From Patescibacteria group bacterium (lineage in GTDB: Bacteria; Patescibacteriota; Minisyncoccia; Phycocordibacterales; PALSA-1337): a stretch of 64,000 nt of DNA. A program made the position numbers and the translations under genes. Shown here piece after piece: positions 34,353 to 46,300 of the stretch. Positions within the stretch are counted from its first letter, which is position 1. The number at the start of each line of letters is the position of its first letter. The stretch lies in assembly GCA_038061795.1 (NCBI GenBank), contig JBBTYL010000002.1, positions 13,193 through 77,192 on the forward strand, written 5' to 3'. The notes beneath the pieces were generated by a model. That model made no database searches. It was not told the DNA's origin and saw nothing but the letters and a program-made list of their open reading frames with translations.

Positions 34353-34387
34353 GAGGCCCCCGCAGGAGTGCATCATAGGAATCAATG

Positions 34388-34424
34388 AAATCCCCGATTG
34401 CAGGTGCAGGCGGGGATTTCTATT
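34388..34424. terminator. Hairpin terminator between convergent genes
   Basis: AAATCCCCG...CGGGGATTT stem followed by a T-rich run. Confidence 0.45.
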
Positions 34425-34466: not shown

Positions 34467-35009
34467 CTAAATTATATTAACTGGGTATAGGAAGTCACTC
34501 TTCTCAATTTGAATTTTCTTAACAAACTTGGTTCCTTTTCCATCTTGATCTTTTTTTGAATATTGCCAGTTGCTATTAGCATCTTTTTCAAACTCTTCGG
34601 AATTTTCAATTAAATATACGTAACCCGTATCCCCAATAGTATCTTCTTCTGGGCCTTCTATCGTCAAAACAAGATTTGATCTATTATCAATCACATTCAT
34701 TGGGTAGCTTAAATTTTTTGCATTATTAAGATATATAGCCTTGAGTATGGCTATTGCGGGGTCACTGGAAGCAAATAACACGCCCCTCCCCTGTGAAGTT
34801 ATTTGTTCAGAAAAAGATAAGTTATTTCTTGATCCATGGAAAAGAAAGTTATATTTTTCAGATAAATAATCTAAAAAGTTTTCAGTTGTTATTCCTTGTT
34901 CTTTAAGCTTAGACAAATCTTCGAGGGTTATTTCTTCTTTATCCGAAAATAACATGTAGAATCTTTCTAAAATTTGCCGACTATCAATCTTTTCGTCAAA
35001 TTTTTCCAT
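34467..35009 (-). CDS. Hypothetical protein (AT-rich island, last gene)
   Basis: No recognisable motifs. Co-directional and tightly spaced with the island genes. Confidence 0.4.
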   Translation of the reverse strand: MEKFDEKIDSRQILERFYMLFSDKEEITLEDLSKLKEQGITTENFLDYLSEKYNFLFHGSRNNLSFSEQITSQGRGVLFASSDPAIAILKAIYLNNAKNLSYPMNVIDNRSNLVLTIEGPEEDTIGDTGYVYLIENSEEFEKDANSNWQYSKKDQDGKGTKFVKKIQIEKSDFLYPVNII

Positions 35010-35014
35010 AATAT

Positions 35015-35644
35015 CTAAAGTATACCAGAATTCTTCTCTATTTCTTTCAAAATAACCTGCATATCGGCCATTTTTTCAAAATCAATGTTCGTCCTGTCCA
35101 AAACTATTAATTTTCCAGGGATTTTATCCTTTGAAAAAGCTTTGTTATGCATTTCTTGGTTCAGGACGATGTATTCATCCGAATAGATCTTGCCTGAATC
35201 AAAGTCCCTTTTGCCAAACCTAAGAAAATTCCTGGTATTTTCGGGACTGTTCTGAAGCAAAATAACCAGATCAGGCAAGCCCAATGATTGAGCGTCTATT
35301 TCAAAAATATCCTGGCAGATTTCTCTTTCAAAACCTTCGGTGAGGATAGGGATGTATGGCTCCAAACTCATCCAGAAAGTATCCATAACGACAATCCTCC
35401 CTTCTTTCTTGAGTGTTTCAGCTCTCATGTGATCTTTCACCATCTTGTTCCTAAACCATAGCATCCTCTCAAGCGGCCTTATGTTTTCTTTAATATCTTC
35501 CTTGAGGCGTGGTGGGAAATCCGCCTCTTCCCCCTCCAAGAGGACTTCGGCGCCGTAGTGCTGCGCCAATTTTTTAGCAAGAAAAGACTTACCTGCGCGT
35601 GGCGCGCCGACGATTGCAATAATTTTACCCTGGAGGTTTTTCAT
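35015..35644 (-). CDS. Deoxynucleoside-kinase-like P-loop kinase
   Basis: Walker A IIAIVGAPRAGKS. C-terminal PDLVILLQNSPENTRNFLRFGKRDFDSG...EYIVLNQEMHNKAF parallels dNK/dCK/dGK PDLIIYLRTSPE...R..R.R.EE...YL..LHE.H. Confidence 0.55.
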   Translation of the reverse strand: MKNLQGKIIAIVGAPRAGKSFLAKKLAQHYGAEVLLEGEEADFPPRLKEDIKENIRPLERMLWFRNKMVKDHMRAETLKKEGRIVVMDTFWMSLEPYIPILTEGFEREICQDIFEIDAQSLGLPDLVILLQNSPENTRNFLRFGKRDFDSGKIYSDEYIVLNQEMHNKAFSKDKIPGKLIVLDRTNIDFEKMADMQVILKEIEKNSGIL

Positions 35645-35676
35645 AACGAAATCTCATTAATATATTTATATCAACA

Positions 35677-36222
35677 TTAGTCATCAAGATAATGCATCAT
35701 AATGTCGTACCCCTTCATCACATAATTATCCTTTTCAAGACCAAAGGTATTTTTTGCAAATTCGAACATTTTTTTCTGCATCTTTTCTCCATCCCCATCT
35801 TCGACCACTTGCTCTATTTCAATGAAGCTTCCCAGCCTTTCAACTTCATCAAGCGTAATTGTGTAATTCTTATACTTGGTCATCCGTCGCTTCTTCTTTA
35901 CCGTAACTCCAGGCAAATAATTGAACATCTTCATGATTGGAGCAATTTCTTCCGGATTATCTATCTGAATATTGTGCTCGATGCAATCCAATTCATTCTT
36001 AACTGGCTTCTTAACAGTAAAAGTATACTCGCCATTTTGAATCCTTAAGCGAGGATAAACCCATTCACCTATTTCTGGTTCGAACCATTTCACATCGTCC
36101 TTATGAATGAAATTCCTGTCTTCTTGAGTTTTCTGTTCAGAAATGACGCAACCCAATTCTTTCAGCTTGTTTTCAATTTGATCTAAATCAGGTGCCTTGA
36201 GTTTTATTTCGATTTCTCTCAT
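35677..36222 (-). CDS. CYTH-domain protein (triphosphate tunnel metalloenzyme, CyaB/ThTPase-like)
   Basis: N-terminal EIEIKLK motif, acidic residues patterned along beta strands. ~180 aa. Confidence 0.6.
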   Translation of the reverse strand: MREIEIKLKAPDLDQIENKLKELGCVISEQKTQEDRNFIHKDDVKWFEPEIGEWVYPRLRIQNGEYTFTVKKPVKNELDCIEHNIQIDNPEEIAPIMKMFNYLPGVTVKKKRRMTKYKNYTITLDEVERLGSFIEIEQVVEDGDGEKMQKKMFEFAKNTFGLEKDNYVMKGYDIMMHYLDD

Positions 36223-36223
36223 G

Positions 36224-37528
36224 TTATTTCTTCCAAAGCTTTAGATCTGTCGGTGTCGGTCGGGAGCCTTTCGGTGCGGCGGATCGATCTGTTTCTGACC
36301 TCGACTGCTTGCCAACAGTCCCATCGGGCCATATGTGATAACCCGGCATGCAAGCCATCACATCATGATGATCATCATCGCTCACACTACTTTTCATTGG
36401 TCCTGAATAAAATGATAGTCTAGCTCTTGTGTAATAAACCAAATCGAACTCTTTAGTGTATGCTTTTATCTTTTCAAGAAGTTCGGTCCATTTCGGATCC
36501 TGTGTATTGTCGAATAGAATCACTTGTAGACCAAGTTTTGCAAGTGTACGAATTGAATTTTTTATATCTTCGAGATAAGTCACGGAATCTTTTCTTACTC
36601 GAGCCTCATATTGATTAATACTCAACCTGATATCTGAAATGCAGTCTCTATTCATTTCAGCAATTTTCTCAGCGGCGATTTGTGCTATTTTATCCATAGC
36701 CGACCATCCTGCTGTTGTGATATGTAGAGGCCTTACTGGTGTAGCTAATAATCTCGCCACATCCCCGAAATCAGCAGGAGACCCGTCCTCATGGAGAAAA
36801 TTTCTATCCTTATAATCAAAGGGGTCGCTATCATAATAATTGGTGATTCTATCGAAAATTGATCCAAAATGTATGTCTTTATAGTCAACAGGCACGGCAT
36901 CTATAAAACCGGCAGTTGATGGCTGTCCGAAATCTTTTACTGTTTTCTCGAAAAACGCAACTGCCTGTGGCTTTAACTTTCGGTATATTTCAAGGAAAGG
37001 ATGTTTAGCAAATATTTCAGCAGCCTTTTTACTGATGAGATTTGTTTCATCAGAGAAACCCGCTTTCCCATTTTTTATATTTCTTATTTCTTCAATACTG
37101 CATCCTGTACCCTCTTCAAGATCTTTAAAATAATTTTCAACCAACTGCCTCATTTTCTCCTCTGCCTTATGTTTTTGTTCGGCACTTTTCACGATTGCTG
37201 GATATGGCATGGTCTGAACCGTTTCAGCCGCGCCAGCGGCGCAGAAAGTACACTTGTGACGACACCCTTTTGTCACTTGAATATTAGAAAGCTCCTCACC
37301 GAATATTTCCGCGAGTTTTTCTTCCGAAAGCTCTAGCCCCTTGAATAATTCAGGTCTTGGATTTTCAACGGTTGGAATGTCCTCCGTTCTTGCTGTACCG
37401 GTCTCAACCTCTTTTCTAAAAGCCTCTCCTTCTTCTGACAACGGATAAGGAATCTTTAAAAACTTTTCTCTTATTAAGCCTTCATTTCTTAATTCTTCAG
37501 GTGGGGATGTAAACTCAAATTTTTCCAT
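36224..37528 (-). CDS. Radical SAM enzyme of unknown specificity
   Basis: CxxxCxxC cluster motif TKGCRHKCTFCAAG at aa ~88-97. No additional Cys cluster, so a single 4Fe-4S. 434 aa. Confidence 0.65.
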   Translation of the reverse strand: MEKFEFTSPPEELRNEGLIREKFLKIPYPLSEEGEAFRKEVETGTARTEDIPTVENPRPELFKGLELSEEKLAEIFGEELSNIQVTKGCRHKCTFCAAGAAETVQTMPYPAIVKSAEQKHKAEEKMRQLVENYFKDLEEGTGCSIEEIRNIKNGKAGFSDETNLISKKAAEIFAKHPFLEIYRKLKPQAVAFFEKTVKDFGQPSTAGFIDAVPVDYKDIHFGSIFDRITNYYDSDPFDYKDRNFLHEDGSPADFGDVARLLATPVRPLHITTAGWSAMDKIAQIAAEKIAEMNRDCISDIRLSINQYEARVRKDSVTYLEDIKNSIRTLAKLGLQVILFDNTQDPKWTELLEKIKAYTKEFDLVYYTRARLSFYSGPMKSSVSDDDHHDVMACMPGYHIWPDGTVGKQSRSETDRSAAPKGSRPTPTDLKLWKK

Positions 37529-37654
37529 ACCAGAAGTATAGCAAATAAGAGAAACTTCGTCGGTGTGCCGTCTTAGAGGAAATTAGAACGATATTTGAGA
37601 AAAGGAATGATGCGACGATCTACATTCCAACATTTTACCCTGCATTTGAACACA

Positions 37655-38452
37655 CTATTCCAAATCAGAAAAAATAGGGTGTGCATCATTATCATCTATA
37701 GGTAGACTGCCTCTCAAATAGCCTTTCGTTTTACTGATGATTTCTTCTGCCGCCGACTTTTGCTCGGTGGTTATATTTTGTGGCAACGGTGTGTCGAGTA
37801 TTTGCTGAATAATTTCTCGCGCTCGAGTAAATTCTTTACCATATTTTCTTTCGACAGAGACCATGTGTCTATATAACCAAAGAACAACATTGCAGAGTGC
37901 TACCTTCCCGTCACGGATATAAAAGTCAGTGTCAACCAAATATATGTGCGGGACTTCATCACCCTTCTTTTTTCCATATACATATTGAGAGGCACTGTTT
38001 ATGTCAGCAAGATATAAACCACCTTCTTCTGGTAACTTATCTAAATAGTATTGAGCAATGCTTGCGTATAATTTTTCCACCTCTTCCGTTAGTTCAGGGG
38101 TAACTTCAATTTTATCCAGATCTGTACCATCAATTTTATCAACAATTGCATATATAACATCTTTGTCTTCGTCGCCTTTACCAATTATAAAATCGACTGG
38201 CGCATTGATGCCATATCTATCTTTCAATTCACTATATAATTTTTGTCCCAATTCCCCTATTACAACAGGGTCTACTTGACCTTTGTATCTTTCTTCCAAA
38301 TCCTCGAAACTCTCCATACGTACAATTTTGTCAGGATTATCTTTTATTTCAAAAATCTTGCCCCTGCCTTTATGGATTGGTGATATTTCACTTTCAATCA
38401 AATGGTCACTGAAATTTATTTCCTTATCGTGTTTTGGTTCTTGGTTTTCCAC
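37655..38452 (-). CDS. Hypothetical protein, possible small protein-kinase-like fold
   Basis: Gly-rich HKGRGKIFEI near the N-terminus and a YLVDTDFY (D-x-D-F) segment reminiscent of kinase-fold catalytic and DFG regions. Weak. Confidence 0.3.
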   Translation of the reverse strand: MENQEPKHDKEINFSDHLIESEISPIHKGRGKIFEIKDNPDKIVRMESFEDLEERYKGQVDPVVIGELGQKLYSELKDRYGINAPVDFIIGKGDEDKDVIYAIVDKIDGTDLDKIEVTPELTEEVEKLYASIAQYYLDKLPEEGGLYLADINSASQYVYGKKKGDEVPHIYLVDTDFYIRDGKVALCNVVLWLYRHMVSVERKYGKEFTRAREIIQQILDTPLPQNITTEQKSAAEEIISKTKGYLRGSLPIDDNDAHPIFSDLE

Positions 38453-38522
38453 ACCAAAAGTCTATCAGGTTAAAGCTGAAATTACTAACTGAAGTAAGGT
38501 TGTCTCGCTAAAAAATATCTGT

Positions 38523-38595
38523 GGGTGGCTAGAGAGAATCGGACTCTCGATACCGGTTCCACAAACCGGAGTTTTACCACTAAACTATAGCCACC
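38523..38595 (-). tRNA. tRNA-His (anticodon GTG) with G-1
   Basis: Reverse complement reads GGTGGCTATAGTTTAGTGGTAAAACTCCGGTTTGTGGAACCGGTATCGAGAGTCCGATTCTCTCTAGCCACC. Anticodon arm CCGGT-TTGTGGA-ACCGG, an extra 5' G pairing with C73, 5' sequence nearly identical to E. coli tRNA-His. Confidence 0.85.
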
Positions 38596-38601
38596 ATATA
38601 A

Positions 38602-39072
38602 TTAAAGGGTCTTGCCGTCATGTGCCAAATAATGGCAATTTCTGCATAACCACCTTAGATTATCTATCTTATTATTTTTTCTGTTTTGGTCAATATGATG
38701 AACCACCAAAACCTTGACGTTAGTTATATCACATTTTGAACAAATTGGCCTAATATTGTTCCTTAGCATGATCTTTCTATACGCATTTTCTCCTCCCTTC
38801 CAATTGCCATGATCCTCACCCGAAAGAATATGGGCATTCTTCCAAACAGCAAAACATGACTTATTGCAAAAGAATCTTCCACTTTTTGACCTTTTAATTT
38901 CAAGCTTGGTTCTATAAAAAGACTTTTTGCAAATTTCACACAAACGTAACTCCCCAGTCTTCATTCTTTCCGAGGAGCAAGCTTGGGAACAATACTTACC
39001 CCAGCCAATTTTAATATGGCTAGGTTTTGCATAAAAATCTTTTGTACAATTTACACAGTTTATCCAAGGCAT
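38602..39072 (-). CDS. HNH endonuclease with N-terminal Cys-rich zinc-ribbon repeats
   Basis: HNH motif VHHIDQNRKNNKIDNLRWLCRNCH. Multiple CxxC pairs upstream. Confidence 0.7.
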   Translation of the reverse strand: MPWINCVNCTKDFYAKPSHIKIGWGKYCSQACSSERMKTGELRLCEICKKSFYRTKLEIKRSKSGRFFCNKSCFAVWKNAHILSGEDHGNWKGGENAYRKIMLRNNIRPICSKCDITNVKVLVVHHIDQNRKNNKIDNLRWLCRNCHYLAHDGKTL

Positions 39073-39136
39073 TCAACCATTATAATTTAATTTATAAGTA
39101 TTGACAATGTAATTACAAATGCATTATACTGTCTGC

Positions 39137-39412
39137 ATGAATATACAAACAACACTGCAAATTAGGGTTGATGACTCTCTCAAAGAAAAAGCCTCTCAAG
39201 CCCTGAAGAGAATGGGGCTGGATCTCTCTTCTGGAATCAAGCTTTTTCTCAATGAAGTGGCCATGACCGAAACCATTCCCTTCTTACCATCAACTGAAAA
39301 AGGCAAAAAACTTCGGGGTTACGAAACATATAAAAAAGAAGCTGAATTTCTAAAAAAACATGGTAAAAGATTTACTTCTGGAAAAGAATTGATAGATGAT
39401 ATTTTAAAATAA
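39137..39412 (+). CDS. dinJ: RelB/DinJ-family type II antitoxin
   Basis: TLQIRVDDSLKEKASQALKRMGLDLSSGIKLFLNEV matches the DinJ ribbon-helix-helix N-terminus. Confidence 0.65.
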   Translation: MNIQTTLQIRVDDSLKEKASQALKRMGLDLSSGIKLFLNEVAMTETIPFLPSTEKGKKLRGYETYKKEAEFLKKHGKRFTSGKELIDDILK

Positions 39413-39455: not shown

Positions 39456-39734
39456 ATGTACAGCATACTTTATTCAAGCAAATTCAGAAAACAATCAAAG
39501 AAAATAGTGGGGTCAGGCAAATATCCTCGAGAGAAGATCGAGTACATTATTAATATTCTTGCTTCTGGAATTCCTCTGGAACCTCACCTTAAAAACCACA
39601 AGTTGCATGGCAAATATAATGGCATGATGGAGTGTCATGTTATACCAAATATGCTTTTGGTTTATGAAAAGGATGAAGAAAAAAGATTAATAATCCTCAT
39701 GGCCCTCGGAAGCCATTCCGAATTATTCAAATAA
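39456..39734 (+). CDS. yafQ: YafQ/RelE-family type II toxin (mRNA interferase)
   Basis: HKLHGKYNGMMECHVIPNMLLVYEKDEEKRLIILMALGSHSELF matches the YafQ C-terminal signature (H..G...ECHI.PD.LLIY....L.L.R.GSHS.LF). Confidence 0.7.
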   Translation: MYSILYSSKFRKQSKKIVGSGKYPREKIEYIINILASGIPLEPHLKNHKLHGKYNGMMECHVIPNMLLVYEKDEEKRLIILMALGSHSELFK

Positions 39735-39940: not shown

Positions 39941-40990
39941 CTAAATAACAAAAGCGACACTATACCTTGCCCTAGTCACCGCTACATACAATTTAGAGCG
40001 ATCTCCAACGTGATCAAGATTCCTAGATTTTAGATACGCTTTCATTGGGCCAGTAGGGAAAATCAAAACTCTGTCGTAATTTCTTCCCTTGGATGCTCCA
40101 ATATTAAATGCTGGCAAATTCATCGTATCACTCTGCTTATTCCATCTCAGCACTACTGGCTTGTAACTCTCAAAATATGTCGGCACTTCAGGTTTTTTGA
40201 TCATAAAAATGCCGTCATGCCCTGTCGTGGTCCCATTCATCGACTTCGTCTTATTAAAATCTGGGAACAACACATCCGCAAAATCACAAATTACCTGATT
40301 ACACCTGAATGAATCATTTTTTTCTTCCATAGTGATCAGGCCTGAGCCGCTATGCTGAAGAACCCAATCAAATATACCGCTTCTCTTAAATTTCTTATTT
40401 TTTCCAGAATTATTCGTACTAAAAGTCCCTTGCCGGGGATCACCCACCGCTGTGATTGGAAGTGCGGACTGAAAAAGCTTCTCAAGGAAAGTGAGGTCAT
40501 ATCCCGCCAAGTCTTGCACCTCATCAATGAAGATATGATCGTAAGCTTTTTCAAGTCTCCTAACAATCAACCCGCCGGAGCGCTCATCGCATGTACAGAC
40601 AAAATCAGAAACTCGATCCCGGTAAATATCTCCACTATTTGCTAGGTAATAGCGGTCAAGATTGTTCTTGGGAGCATATTTGGTCCCACTAGGCATATCC
40701 TTAAAAAGGATGGATGCGATCCGAGATTTTTCCGTCACGAAGCTTTGGTAAGGCCGGATGCCTTCCTGTAATAAAAAGCTGAACCATGATAACAGCACGA
40801 TGTGTTTTGGGACATGCCCGCACTTTTCAATTAGATAAGACCTGATCTGGTCCAAGTTCTCATGGGTGTATGTTGTTATCAGAATCCGCTTCCCGACCAA
40901 CGCAATAGCCTCCTCGACAATCATGGTTGTCTTCCTTGATCCAGCGCTCGCCACGACCACCTTGTTTTTAGCTGACGGCATCTTTGACAT
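39941..40990 (-). CDS. UvrD/Rep-like superfamily 1 helicase (short), GajB-like partner of the OLD-family ATPase
   Basis: Motif I ASAGSRKTT, motif II IFIDEVQD, motif VI YVAVTRAR. 23-nt overlap with the upstream OLD-family gene. Confidence 0.6.
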   Translation of the reverse strand: MSKMPSAKNKVVVASAGSRKTTMIVEEAIALVGKRILITTYTHENLDQIRSYLIEKCGHVPKHIVLLSWFSFLLQEGIRPYQSFVTEKSRIASILFKDMPSGTKYAPKNNLDRYYLANSGDIYRDRVSDFVCTCDERSGGLIVRRLEKAYDHIFIDEVQDLAGYDLTFLEKLFQSALPITAVGDPRQGTFSTNNSGKNKKFKRSGIFDWVLQHSGSGLITMEEKNDSFRCNQVICDFADVLFPDFNKTKSMNGTTTGHDGIFMIKKPEVPTYFESYKPVVLRWNKQSDTMNLPAFNIGASKGRNYDRVLIFPTGPMKAYLKSRNLDHVGDRSKLYVAVTRARYSVAFVI

Positions 40991-42563
40991 ACGCGGGAAA
41001 TTCTATCTTCTCGTTGGTCTCGAACAACGCGAGCGCGCATTCCGTCTTATTGGCGGTCATATAATCAACAAGTTCTGGTTTATCTTTGAAAGCCTTGCCA
41101 AAAACTTTATTTAACACGTCTAGCCCATTAACCTCTGCGATGTGAGGCTCCAGTGTTGTAAGGGCATTGTTCTTATCGGCGCACACTTTGATTGAGCCGA
41201 AAGCAGAATATGGTGTGTATTTTTTCTCAACCTTATTCTCATAATCGCCATCATTATCAGTTACAACTGCGACGGTGTTTGAAAGCTCTTTTGCAATATC
41301 AAGGAACCGGGCAAAAGAAAGTCCCCGAACGCTTATGACATCAACACCTGCTTCAATCGGCAACTTTCCGTGTTTCACCAGGAAAGCTTTTTGAACAATC
41401 AATTCGTCAGACGGCCCTTCAACTAAAATGGCCTTCTTTGCCAAAATGAGGCGCAGGGTATCATATCCAGAAAGTTTTTTGAAGTAATCCTGCGTATCTG
41501 GAGGCAGTTTGCTCAAATTTGAATGCTTCGCTTCATGAAGGAAAATCACCTTGTCGATACCAAGCTTATTTAAAACGTATGCGCTGTGTGTCACGATCAC
41601 GATCTGTTTCCCAGCACATTTTTCCCGTATCTTTTTAATGAGTGTACTCATCGAGGAAAACGAGAGATGGTTCTCAGGCTCTTCAATAAGAATGACATTC
41701 GACTCCTTTGCTTGCCGCTCAAGTGCGAGCATGATTTTGAGGGCGCTCTGTTCTCCCTTACCAATGAACTGGAATGGCAATTCATCTAAATGAGGAATCA
41801 GGGAGTTTTCCCAATTTGTCTTTTGCGAAGTGTCGATGGAAATTGCGAGCTTCTTGGTCGTTATCGCGCCCTGGTTTTGGGTCAGTTTTGCATTGATACC
41901 AACAATTGCGTCCTCAGCTGAAAACTGCTCTTTCAGTTTTCTGTAAGCAATCGCCAGCGAAACCTTCTCTTTTGCATCAAGGCTGCCGTTGATTATTTCT
42001 TGAAGGAAATAATCAGTCCCACTTTGTAGACGGATTGTGGTCGCATCGATATTGGAAATGGCAACCGGCAGACTACGAGGTGTTATCGCGTTATTTGCAA
42101 ATGAATACCAGTGAACCTTGTAGTACTCGGTTGGAATGGTTTTTATTTGCTCCCTTGCTTCAAGCAGCTTGGAATATTCATCCGCATACTCGTCATCAAA
42201 CGAGATCACCAATTTCAATCCAACGTAGTCCGTCTTCTGTGAATTATTGTTTCCTCGCAAGTATTGCAACTCTGCCAATTCCTCAAGATACAGTTCAATT
42301 ACTATCTCCGGCGGAACTGGATTGCCTCCACCAGCTACCTCTTTCAAATACGCGTCGATAGAGGCCTTGTTGAACAAGTGGGAAGAGAGCTCATATTCAA
42401 TCGCTTTGCCGTTGAGTCTTTTGGTCAGCACTAATGCTATTGCTTCAAGGATGGTTGACTTACCTGCCTCGTTGTTTCCAACGATAATGTTCAAATCCTT
42501 ATTAAGGGATAGGGTAAAAGCTTGGAACAGCTTGAAGTTTTTAATGTAAATTTGATTTATCAT
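40968..42563 (-). CDS. OLD-family ABC-type ATPase with C-terminal TOPRIM nuclease domain (GajA-like)
   Basis: Walker A GNNEAGKST, Walker B IILIEEPENHLS, H-loop VIVTHS. C-terminal TOPRIM ILVEGPSDE ... VTDNDGD. Confidence 0.7.
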   Translation of the reverse strand: MINQIYIKNFKLFQAFTLSLNKDLNIIVGNNEAGKSTILEAIALVLTKRLNGKAIEYELSSHLFNKASIDAYLKEVAGGGNPVPPEIVIELYLEELAELQYLRGNNNSQKTDYVGLKLVISFDDEYADEYSKLLEAREQIKTIPTEYYKVHWYSFANNAITPRSLPVAISNIDATTIRLQSGTDYFLQEIINGSLDAKEKVSLAIAYRKLKEQFSAEDAIVGINAKLTQNQGAITTKKLAISIDTSQKTNWENSLIPHLDELPFQFIGKGEQSALKIMLALERQAKESNVILIEEPENHLSFSSMSTLIKKIREKCAGKQIVIVTHSAYVLNKLGIDKVIFLHEAKHSNLSKLPPDTQDYFKKLSGYDTLRLILAKKAILVEGPSDELIVQKAFLVKHGKLPIEAGVDVISVRGLSFARFLDIAKELSNTVAVVTDNDGDYENKVEKKYTPYSAFGSIKVCADKNNALTTLEPHIAEVNGLDVLNKVFGKAFKDKPELVDYMTANKTECALALFETNEKIEFPAYVKDAVS

Positions 42564-42799
42564 AATTGGGGGAGTGTTCGCTCTTCGGCAAAAAGTTAAG
42601 TCTTCTGAAGTGACATATTATTTGAATCACTACCCAGATGCTTCTGTGGGAATGAGTCAATCGTACGCCGATAGCAACTTCGAGTCAACGCACGCGCGTT
42701 GTTATGATTTAGTTGGTCCTTTATCAACCAATAAAATCATCATGAAATCATATTTCGCATACATCCGCGTCTCAACAGCGCGACAAGGAGAGGAAGACC

Positions 42800-43152
42800 A
42801 TTTGGATTTCTCTTCACCTTGGATCTTTACGACTGTAAAGCGGGTGTTTGTGACGACATCGCCCTTTGCTACGACTTTCTGGAAAAGTTGGTGGATGAGC
42901 TTCAGATGCAAAAACAATCGCCGCCGTTTATTTTCCGTAGCGACGGGAACAAGTATCCCGAAAAGGCGGGCCTTAGTGGATGGGTTCCGCTGATTGAAAG
43001 CGGCATTCAGATCCACACACTTTCAGCTAAAAACTTTATTTCGATCGACATCTATTCCTGCGGCCCGTTCCGTACAGAACGGCTGGCGGAATTTGTGCGC
43101 ACTTTTTTTGAGCCCGGGGATATTGAGACCAATCTTATTCCGCGCGGGAAAA
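42800..43152 (+). repeat. 353-bp perfect direct repeat, copy A (matches 44028-44380)
   Basis: Sequence from ACCATTTGGATTTCTCTTCACC through AATCTTATTCCGCGCGG is identical in both copies. Confidence 0.85.
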
Positions 43153-43184
43153 AATACCATTGTCGGATGACTGATGCGAAATAA
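42800..43184 (+). pseudogene. speH: S-adenosylmethionine decarboxylase (SpeH, pyruvoyl type) copy 1; N-terminus and start codon unclear, divergent C-terminus
   Basis: FGFLFTLDLYDC ... GWVPLIESGIQIHT ... IDIYSCG SpeH motifs. No in-frame ATG/GTG upstream; only a TTG inside the first strand. C-terminus differs from copy 2. Confidence 0.45.
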
Positions 43185-43891: not shown

Positions 43892-43998
43892 ACTGAGCCA
43901 CTACCGGATTTGAGCGTGCATTGCGGTAAGGCGTGATACGTGGTAAGATTTGCTTACTCGTCAATAATGCTTCTGGGTACGTTGACGAATTAATTGTC

Positions 43999-44421
43999 GT
44001 GGAGGCATACAATAACGCGCAAAAACCATTTGGATTTCTCTTCACCTTGGATCTTTACGACTGTAAAGCGGGTGTTTGTGACGACATCGCCCTTTGCTAC
44101 GACTTTCTGGAAAAGTTGGTGGATGAGCTTCAGATGCAAAAACAATCGCCGCCGTTTATTTTCCGTAGCGACGGGAACAAGTATCCCGAAAAGGCGGGCC
44201 TTAGTGGATGGGTTCCGCTGATTGAAAGCGGCATTCAGATCCACACACTTTCAGCTAAAAACTTTATTTCGATCGACATCTATTCCTGCGGCCCGTTCCG
44301 TACAGAACGGCTGGCGGAATTTGTGCGCACTTTTTTTGAGCCCGGGGATATTGAGACCAATCTTATTCCGCGCGGAACTAAATATCACCACTCTTTTGCC
44401 GCAGATGAGCCCATAATTTAG
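43999..44421 (+). CDS. speH: S-adenosylmethionine decarboxylase proenzyme (SpeH), likely functional copy, GTG start
   Basis: Full beta-strand 1 (KPFGFLFTLDLYDCK) aligning with T. maritima KSLGRHLVAEFYEC. ES (Ser) pyruvoyl cleavage site in ESGIQIHT. Confidence 0.65.
   Translation: MEAYNNAQKPFGFLFTLDLYDCKAGVCDDIALCYDFLEKLVDELQMQKQSPPFIFRSDGNKYPEKAGLSGWVPLIESGIQIHTLSAKNFISIDIYSCGPFRTERLAEFVRTFFEPGDIETNLIPRGTKYHHSFAADEPII
44028..44380 (+). repeat. 353-bp perfect direct repeat, copy B (matches 42800-43152)
   Basis: Identical to copy A. The two copies are 1228 bp apart and flank an IS remnant. Confidence 0.85.
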
Positions 44422-44565
44422 GAAATGCGGGGGAACAACGAATTCTGTTCCGATTGTCATTTCGCGGGTTAAAATCCCCACCTCTGAGACGTTGGGTTCA
44501 AAACATTTTTGCTTCTTCGATCAAAAAAAGCCCCTCGCGATAAATCGAGAGGGGTTGTGCTGATG

Positions 44566-45159
44566 TCAGCCGAACGACAACTCCTGTTGTCCAAGCGAAA
44601 CTTTGATGCGTTCCACCTCGGTAGGCTTGGGCGGTTCGCCTTGTTCCAAAGCCTCGGGTGATTGGATGCGGAGTGCGAGCGGCAGCCACGGTGCGATGTA
44701 ATGGATATTTGACCATGCGGCCCAATACTCATTGGACAACGCATTGCCGTGCATGACCCGGGTGGGGATGCCCCACAGGGTCGTGTTGATGAACGCCATG
44801 TCACAGGCCGTGCGGCTAATATCAATGGCGGTGACGCGCAGGCGTCTGCGGATTTCAGGCGGACACGCTTCCGCCACTGACAGAATCATCGCCCCTGCGC
44901 CGCAGGCAGGCTCACAGATGAGTATAGGCCCTTCGGCGGGCCATGATTCCGTGTCTCCCATGAGCATTTGTGCCATCATATCGCAGATGTTCTTCGGCGT
45001 GTGGAACTCGCCGTTCCATTGTTGTCCCTTCTGAGACAGAGCGGATTCCATATAGTATCCGCCAATCAAGTCCTCAAAGGGATGTATTTCCATTTCGGCA
45101 TCCCTGCCACGGTTGGCGCCAGGAAGCGCAGTTCCGGCCCCCCTGCTGATAAAGGCCAC
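44566..45159 (-). pseudogene. N6-adenine DNA methyltransferase fragment (HsdM-like), GC-rich
   Basis: Motif X-like GEFHTPKNICDMMAQML, motif I ICEPACGAGAM, LWGI...HGNAL, but no NPPF/Y motif IV and only 197 aa. Confidence 0.5.
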
Positions 45160-45223
45160 CTCCCATTGCTCGCGCAGAAGGCACAGGGACTGTTGCAGGT
45201 CTTGGAGTACGGGTGACGCCCCA

Positions 45224-46036
45224 TCAACAAACCGGAATTGTGTATGGTCCTGAATGGAAGATGGCGTGCGAGCAATCCATTCTAAGAAATTCGAGTCGTC
45301 TTGGCGGGGGGCGCTCCTTGATGATCAAGGTCGCCAAGGCGACCCGAATTCCTTTACCCACAGCAAAAAACTGCCCAGCCCTCCCTGGCTGGGATGATGG
45401 ATGGTTGGCGTATCGAACCAAATCGGCAGTGCAGTGCAATTGCAGTTTGCCCAAGATATTCTTGCGGTGTGTTTCCACCGTGCCGAGGCTGATTCCCAAA
45501 GTTTCGGCGGTTTCCTTGTTCGTTTTTCCTTCGGCGAGCAATTGTACTATCTGACGTTCGCGTGGCGTTAATCTAAAACGCTGCATGCCGCCGATTGGGA
45601 GCGCTGTTGTCGCGCGGAGGTTTTGCCCGTTTACGTTGTTTGAGATTTTGGGCGTGAGGAAGTTTTTGCCGGAAGCCAAAGCTTCAATTGCTATGGGGAG
45701 CAGTTCCGCGGCGTCACTCTTGAGCAAATAACCGCACGCGCCAGCTTTCAGGACTTCATCAGCAAGGGATTCCGAGTCGTGCATGGTGAGAATCAACACT
45801 TTGGTCCGGGGCGATTCCGCTTTCAGGATGCGGGTGGCGTCCAGGCCATTCAATTCAGGCATGGAGATGTCCAAGATGGCGATGTCGGGTTTGAGTGTGT
45901 GCACGAGTTCGAGCGCGGTGCGGCCATTGGCAGCCTCGCCACACAGTTCCCATGTCGTCTGGCTGTCAATTACGCTTTTAACGCCTTGCCGAATCATGCT
46001 GTGGTCATCGGCAATGATGATGCGAAGATTTTTCAC
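45224..46036 (-). CDS. NarL/FixJ-family response regulator (REC plus LuxR HTH), GC-rich
   Basis: IIADDHSMIRQG...LDISMPELNG receiver. LTPRERQIVQLLAEGKTNKETAETLGISLGTVETHRKNILGKL LuxR HTH. Confidence 0.8.
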   Translation of the reverse strand: MKNLRIIIADDHSMIRQGVKSVIDSQTTWELCGEAANGRTALELVHTLKPDIAILDISMPELNGLDATRILKAESPRTKVLILTMHDSESLADEVLKAGACGYLLKSDAAELLPIAIEALASGKNFLTPKISNNVNGQNLRATTALPIGGMQRFRLTPRERQIVQLLAEGKTNKETAETLGISLGTVETHRKNILGKLQLHCTADLVRYANHPSSQPGRAGQFFAVGKGIRVALATLIIKERPPPRRLEFLRMDCSHAIFHSGPYTIPVC

Positions 46037-46045
46037 GTGAGATTA

Positions 46046-46300
46046 TTCATTTGGTTGGGAGCAGTCTGGGGGGAATCCTCTGGCGAAAGGGGTACTGAGG
46101 CGAGCACTGTGACGCCTTCTGAATCTGATTCCACGTTGAGGTCGCCCCCCACCAAGGCCAGCCGCTCCTGCATGGCTGCCAGGCCAACGCCGGATTTTCG
46201 CAGGAACTTGGTGTCGGACGTAGCGGGTTGCGTCGGGAGGCCGTGTCCGAAGTCTTGAACTTCAACGCGGACCTCCTGGTGGTCACGGGCGAGCCGGATG
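46046..46300 (-). pseudogene. Histidine kinase C-terminal (HATPase_c) fragment, NarX-type, translationally abutting the NarL-like gene
   Basis: Minus-strand translation IRLARDHQEVRVEVQDFGHGLP...GVGLAAMQERLALVGGDLNVESDSEGVTVLASVPL. No intact upstream ORF. Confidence 0.5.

Follow-up and report, generated by a model that had tools for sequence, protein, structure and literature searches.

Five genes downstream of tRNA-His in a Patescibacteria genome probably lack a functional link and share a hotspot of gene turnover

We analysed a window of 64,000 nucleotides (nt) from the Patescibacteria group bacterium assembly GCA_038061795.1 (contig JBBTYL010000002.1, positions 13,193 to 77,192), in which five genes, here called A to E, follow a tRNA-His gene on the minus strand. 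Identical copies of B, D and E are recorded at NCBI as proteins of a 'Patescibacteria group bacterium', which places the window in a metagenome-assembled genome (MAG) of that group. An original prediction, made from the DNA letters of this window, had proposed the five genes as a candidate nucleotide-modifying, viperin-like system that includes a radical S-adenosylmethionine (SAM) enzyme. The tRNA and the genes that follow it, given by their positions in the window and the lengths of their products in amino acids (aa), are:

38523-38594, minus strand: tRNA-His (GTG), called by ARAGORN and matched by Rfam RF00005 at 64.4 bits; it opens a locus of variable gene content
37655-38452, minus strand: gene A, 265 aa, from an unannotated family of ~250-aa proteins
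36224-37528, minus strand: gene B, 434 aa, a predicted divergent radical-SAM enzyme
35677-36222, minus strand: gene C, 181 aa, a CYTH or triphosphate-tunnel metalloenzyme (TTM) protein, CyaB-like
35015-35644, minus strand: gene D, 209 aa, a P-loop nucleoside or nucleotide kinase of the deoxynucleoside kinase (dNK)/dTMP-kinase-like group
34467-35009, minus strand: gene E, 180 aa, from a small unannotated family, with a probable ADP-ribosyltransferase (ART) fold
34387-34420, minus strand: a hairpin with a 10-bp stem, between the convergent gene E and a PKD-domain gene

The five co-directional open reading frames (ORFs) occupy 34467-38452, as had been predicted, and the motifs quoted for their products are present: KGCRHKCTFCAAG in B, MREIEIKLK in C and the stretch that begins with PDLVILLQNSPENTRNF in D. 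Gene A starts 70 nt downstream of tRNA-His on the same strand, and the spacers between A and B, B and C, C and D, and D and E measure 126, 1, 32 and 5 nt, respectively. The GC content of the block is 38.0%, compared with 44.9% for the whole window, in which 4-kb segments have a standard deviation of 2.7 points; the block ranks among the 0.7% of such segments that are poorest in GC. The AT bias that had been reported for the five genes is real, but the range given for it, 33-36%, agrees with A (36.8%), C (36.6%) and E (31.7%) while underestimating B (40.5%) and D (41.6%). The low-GC stretch extends past tRNA-His through genes for an HNH endonuclease, RelB and YafQ (~35%). The hairpin beyond E is a possible end of the transcription unit; the 96-nt stretch that contains it folds at -23.8 kcal/mol (z -2.6), its stem is not followed by a U-run, and a scan with a terminator consensus did not list it. 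Promoter and terminator consensus scans were uninformative, because their counts equalled the chance expectation. When we scanned 33-47 kb against Rfam, tRNA was the sole match. The start codons of B and E lie within an identical 15-nt sequence, TATGGAAAAATTTGA, which encodes MEKF (37515-37529 and 34996-35010); several homologues in both families also start with MEK, and the sharing of the 15 nt is probably due to chance.

We searched for the five genes together in other genomes at 43 distinct loci of B, 3 of E and 2 of D. The B loci, 67 in all and ~703 kb in extent, were collected through a single scan of genomes, another of metagenomes, and look-ups of exact proteins. Homologues of A, D and E were absent from all 67 B loci, both by tblastn and by hidden Markov models of the families. 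Gene C was found beside B in a single population among these loci, from Hainich H41 (L034, L035 and L046), in which B is 85% identical at the amino acid level and the B-C pair is again separated by 1 nt. Recurrence of the block in other genomes, a check that the original prediction had proposed, came out negative at these loci: apart from B-C in this one population, no pair of the five genes recurs. No other recurrent neighbour of B emerged from all-against-all BLAST clustering of ORFs or from a Pfam census of 145 proteins encoded within two genes on each side, and the genes just downstream of B homologues are mutually unrelated, encoding a DUF218 protein, a methyltransferase, NUDIX hydrolases (twice), an S1 protein, a nitroreductase and a tRNA synthetase. 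Two candidate co-occurrences were rejected: A-like proteins upstream of the B homologues in L001 and L002 have no similarity to A, and a gene next to B in L020 that gave a weak tblastn match to D encodes a DUF218 protein, not a kinase.

Comparison with two related groundwater contigs, L034 and L042, shows how the content of the locus varies. Both carry the conserved flank that runs from pilM through the L19 gene to tRNA-Leu, at 73-86% nucleotide identity to the window, and both have tRNA-His at the equivalent place (5493-5566 in L034 and 7928-8000 in L042). The gene orders after tRNA-Leu are:

Window: a segment with Gabija, toxin-antitoxin genes and a repeat; HNH; tRNA-His; A; B; C; D; E; PKD gene; M23 peptidase gene; peptidoglycan-binding gene
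L034: HNH; tRNA-His; SKI-like kinase; nucleoside triphosphatase; binding protein; two small ORFs; B; C; four unrelated genes
L042: tRNA-His; D; a 72-aa gene; sugar-metabolism genes; M23 peptidase gene; peptidoglycan-binding gene

L034 thus has B and C without A, D and E, whereas L042 has D directly after tRNA-His, as an 83% homologue; A was found in neither contig. The M23 peptidase and peptidoglycan-binding genes beyond the block are common to L042 and the window, and L044, from a more distant genome, keeps the order D, PKD gene and peptidoglycan-binding gene, with other genes between them. Together, these comparisons show that the locus next to the tRNA is variable and that A, B-C, D and E are distributed as independent modules. 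Nucleotide identity is 82.2% between B-C and its counterpart in L034, where the core flanks range from 73 to 82.5%, and 80.4% between D and its counterpart in L042, where the flanks range from 74 to 80%. Because the divergence of B-C and of D is about that of the core flanks, both look old and vertically inherited, with differential loss or gain, rather than recently imported.

The original prediction had read the five genes as a single pathway, for antiviral defence or for modification: the radical-SAM enzyme would, like viperin, produce a modified nucleotide (for example a 3′-deoxy-3′,4′-didehydro-nucleoside triphosphate, ddh-NTP), and the kinase, the CYTH protein and the other products would supply or process the substrates. 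We consider such a pathway highly improbable. Among the loci examined, the five genes do not occur jointly outside this genome, and close relatives have, of the five, either B-C alone or D alone. D stands in housekeeping chromosomal synteny in relatives, one of the observations that the original prediction had named as counting against it. A five-gene system is not upheld by these results, and the block does not merit being pursued as a candidate pathway of defence or modification.

Instead, the block is probably not a dedicated pathway but a series of co-directional genes without a functional link, at a hotspot of changing gene content downstream of tRNA-Leu and tRNA-His; any co-transcription of A to E may reflect a compact genome rather than a common function. 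Several observations weigh against this conclusion. The tight B-C and D-E spacing on one strand would allow co-transcription. Nucleotides or NAD+ are plausible ligands of three or four of the products, a suggestive common theme, and the locus adjoins a real defence island and is compositionally deviant. The flanks available at the B loci were 6-10 kb and many contigs were short. Finally, 3 of the 43 distinct loci have a NUDIX hydrolase gene in the flank of the B homologue. In two of them, both from Uhrbacteria MAGs, the NUDIX gene lies directly downstream of the B homologue (L011, 9559-10005, 143 nt away; L021, 9520-10101, 2 nt away), and in the third (L004, 3923-4453) it is ~2.5 kb from it. 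Along with the CYTH gene of the present locus, these NUDIX genes weakly hint at a link between B and nucleotide-phosphate metabolism. Three loci are too few for NUDIX to count as a conserved partner of B, and we rejected it as such.

A narrower link, between B and C, would be that the two genes form a lineage-specific module in which B acts on or makes a nucleoside triphosphate or polyphosphate and C hydrolyses or cyclises it. The 1-nt spacer is kept in the window and in L034, the stretch homologous between these two extends from 15 nt ahead of B to a point 10 nt short of the C stop codon, and the NUDIX proteins encoded directly after B in L011 and L021 are another class of nucleotide-phosphate hydrolase. 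However, the pairing recurs in one other population only, and at 85% identity shared descent accounts for it. CYTH genes are missing from the two flanking genes scanned on each side at 41 other distinct B loci, and small CYTH proteins elsewhere stand alone, as does the closest solved relative of C, an archaeal TTM. We therefore find a B-C module doubtful.

The position of the block directly 3′ of a tRNA, its low GC content and its variable content in relatives are all features that would be expected if the block, or B alone, were cargo of an integrative mobile element targeting the 3′ end of tRNA-His, and some B homologues lie near genes for a serine recombinase, a TraG-like protein or Fic and PLD proteins. 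In position, AT richness and variability between relatives the block does resemble tRNA-linked genomic islands. It differs from them in having neither an integrase nor a repeat of the tRNA end, and in that its components are as diverged as the core genome. The ORFs in 34.4-39.1 kb include no integrase or recombinase gene, and the block is not bounded by long direct repeats. The flanking direct repeat of the tRNA-His 3′ fragment that the original prediction had proposed to look for was not found: the 21-nt 3′ end of the tRNA has no second copy within 3 mismatches anywhere in the window. B homologues are not generally AT-biased relative to their own flanks (mean -0.009 over 44 loci). Neither a viral, phage or plasmid origin of B nor a viral origin of E could be upheld, as B had no match in IMG/VR or in phage or plasmid collections and E had none in IMG/VR. 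Taken with the core-like divergence of B-C and D, these results make a mobile-element origin highly unlikely. What the three genomes show instead is a clear case of gene turnover beyond two neighbouring tRNA genes, in reduced genomes and with none of the classical signs of integration.

The earlier radical-SAM call for B is supported by fold and motif. A high-confidence structural model places B among the true radical-SAM enzymes, with the partial or full TIM-barrel core fold of that group, and the cysteines of its CxxxCxxC cluster (C89, C93 and C96) are invariant in 34 of 34 aligned family members. B reaches 25.2 bits against Pfam PF04055, below the gathering score of 29.5 and with a match confined to residues 83-119; the sequence model does not capture so divergent a family. 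About 200 of the 434 residues of B align to solved radical-SAM enzymes; a helical insert of ~100 aa after the cluster loop and the N- and C-terminal modules, which are conserved within the family, do not. A profile of the B family had no match among PDB sequences, and no extra Pfam domains were found in the longer members. The family comprises ~70 clusters, almost all in Patescibacteria, and is sparsely distributed, with 26 loci in 185,579 species genomes scanned. Two diverged copies, on separate contigs (L014 and L022), occur in the same MAG (JACQPQ01...), which is labelled Gammaproteobacteria and is possibly mis-binned or mislabelled.

The viperin-like identity suggested for B did not stand. 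B has no PADLOC match at E ≤ 1 and no viperin model among its NCBIfam matches, and its structure is no closer to viperin than to some ten to a dozen other radical-SAM enzymes. It differs from prokaryotic viperins (pVips) in its length, its helical insert and its family-specific terminal modules. Whereas pVips often adjoin nucleotide kinases, kinase D is unlinked to B in every other genome examined. The missing PADLOC model and the modules of B that align to no solved radical-SAM enzyme also count against the five-gene pathway, as do the NCBIfam results: matches to ArsL, MiaB, CofH and others reach E 0.004 at best and cover the cluster motif only, so that a specific radical-SAM subfamily for B was likewise rejected. 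EpeE/YydG, SuiB, SkfB, BtrN, anSME and the pyruvate formate-lyase (PFL)-activating enzyme share 9-15% sequence identity with B, and the B-family profile finds none of them. SPASM/Twitch enzymes have a second Cys cluster, which B lacks, having one near-invariant extra Cys, C393; and B differs from minimal-core radical-SAM enzymes in lacking a conserved precursor-peptide or partner gene. From its fold and motifs, B would bind a [4Fe-4S] cluster through C89, C93 and C96 and cleave SAM to a 5′-deoxyadenosyl radical. As no partner gene is conserved, B would most likely act alone, on a substrate available in any cell. A bolder proposal is that the B family is a new, Patescibacteria-restricted radical-SAM class that is translationally coupled to a CYTH enzyme in this lineage and makes or processes a modified nucleotide, analogous to viperin but evolutionarily separate from it, in a defence-rich hotspot; we regard this as quite improbable.

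Gene C bears out its earlier assignment to the CYTH proteins. It scores above the cut-offs of both Pfam CYTH PF01928 (5.3e-14, 52.9 bits versus 23.2) and TIGR00318 cyaB (69.1 bits versus 57.95), and the ExExK motif is present at its N terminus (MREIEIKLK). The closest solved chains are the Saci_0718 TTM (9e-8) and the class IV adenylate cyclase of Yersinia (4e-6). C shares the CYTH profile and ExExK with both class IV adenylate cyclase CyaB and Sulfolobus Saci_0718, between whose cyclase and triphosphatase activities its sequence does not distinguish; C would hydrolyse or cyclise a triphosphate substrate within its tunnel. It differs from known CYTH and TTM enzymes in lying beside a radical-SAM gene, an adjacency seen in this lineage only among the loci examined, and a literature search for a link between radical SAM and CYTH in Patescibacteria found nothing relevant.

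For gene D, the earlier call of a dNK-like P-loop kinase is upheld. Its best curated Pfam match is AAA_28 (5.8e-8, 33.6 bits versus a cut-off of 27), and it matches phrog_761, 'thymidylate kinase', over its full length (3.7e-17). Its P-loop reads GAPRAGKS. D resembles dNK and dTMP-kinase-like kinases in the P-loop and the phrog_761 match but falls short of the Pfam cut-offs for dNK PF01712 (E 0.058, 13.6 bits versus 27) and Thymidylate_kin (E 0.005). The 82 clusters of D homologues carry, where organism names are given, names of Patescibacteria lineages; their sources call them deoxyadenosine/deoxycytidine kinase or deoxynucleoside kinase, and some have precomputed PF01712 or PF02223 matches. 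D is a vertically inherited dNK-like kinase whose role is probably nucleotide salvage, in which it would, judging by fold and motifs, phosphorylate salvaged (deoxy)nucleosides or nucleotides. De novo nucleotide synthesis is largely absent from Patescibacteria, which rely on salvage.

Gene E, formerly labelled unknown, probably has an Arr/Tpt1/PARP-like ART fold. E has no significant match to a sequence family, and the assignment is provisional because a Foldseek cross-check of the fold was not significant. In the E family the His of an HGS motif is invariant, and the aromatic position is occupied by F, or by Y in a single member; the acidic catalytic position may be D143, which is mostly conserved, or Q149, which is invariant. 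The family differs from Tpt1/KptA in having no invariant Arg that could serve as the phosphate-binding tetrad, and E differs from Arr, Tpt1/KptA and the PARP catalytic domain in an extra N-terminal three-helix segment. With such a fold and motifs, E would ADP-ribosylate some target using NAD+. Its homologues at the three distinct loci occur singly, in housekeeping surroundings: beside HSP20, between the L27 and L9 genes, and among NUDIX and HAD genes. At the last of these (L039, 2938-8361) the E homologue is inside a co-directional run of small genes with a nucleotide theme (nucleoside deoxyribosyltransferase-like, NUDIX, histidine phosphatase, glyoxalase-like and HAD), which shows that series of genes with an apparent theme are frequent in these genomes but are not conserved units.

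Gene A had no match in Pfam, NCBIfam, PADLOC, PHROG or PDB. Its family is large, with at least 549 representative clusters at E ≤ 1e-3, in which D150 and D174 are invariant and R45, E75, K139, Q156 and D176 near-invariant. Weak kinase matches were obtained with single family members only (MAD6 kinase, 1.1e-3; Bud32, 0.057; ABC1, 0.096). These residues and matches make a protein-kinase-like fold possible, and A may be an atypical kinase.

Genes B and E could each be accessory in their own right, B encoding a stand-alone radical-SAM enzyme that serves Patescibacteria in stress or defence, and E an independent toxin-like or resistance-like ART, so that the locus would collect single-gene accessory functions. 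The sparse distribution of B, its two copies in one MAG and the mobile or defence genes in some of its contexts would fit such roles, as would the variability of the locus and its proximity to a Gabija system, and the ART fold is common in toxins and Arr-type resistance enzymes. Yet many B and E homologues are found among ribosomal, tRNA-synthetase, RNase Y and purine or pyrimidine genes; no PADLOC model matches A, B, C or E, and no immunity-like partner lies beside the E homologues. We think this quite unlikely.

On the other side of tRNA-His from the block, where the original prediction had noted defence genes, lie:

38602-39072, minus strand: HNH endonuclease gene (Pfam HNH_3/HNH), immediately upstream of tRNA-His
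39119-39412, plus strand: RelB antitoxin (Pfam RelB, 2.7e-10)
39456-39734, plus strand: YafQ toxin (Pfam YafQ_toxin, 8.6e-25)
39941-40990, minus strand: GajB, 349 aa (PADLOC, 1.6e-118, full length; Pfam UvrD)
40968-42563, minus strand: GajA, 531 aa (PADLOC, 2.7e-211, full length; Pfam AAA_15 and an OLD-like TOPRIM domain)

The overlapping, full-length GajA and GajB genes constitute a complete Gabija system. The segment between tRNA-Leu and HNH, Gabija included, is missing from L034 and L042 and is separate from the five genes. HNH itself also adjoins tRNA-His in L034 (4987-5484; 37-51% aa identity by tblastx), whereas L042 has no HNH there and its tRNA-Leu and tRNA-His are 29 nt apart. Beyond Gabija, two identical direct copies of at least 300 nt (42794-43093 and 44022-44321, with a spacing of 1228 nt) make an S-adenosylmethionine-decarboxylase-like gene occur twice (ORFs 42819-43184 and 43933-44421), with short ORF fragments between the copies; the arrangement looks like an insertion or duplication scar. 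The stretch at 44500-46100 has a GC content of 55-58% in a genome of 45% and could be foreign DNA or an assembly chimera. By eye, its ORFs resemble a LuxR-type response regulator (45224-46036, minus strand, 270 aa) and a methyltransferase fragment (44566-45159, 197 aa).

What is new here is not a system but an unrecognised radical-SAM family and a probable unrecognised ART-fold family. Current understanding is not overturned by either. B represents a Patescibacteria family of radical-SAM enzymes that sequence models miss and that has no partner gene, and E a small unannotated family with what is probably a minimal Arr/Tpt1-like ART fold; both are useful annotation leads for a phylum rich in hypothetical proteins.

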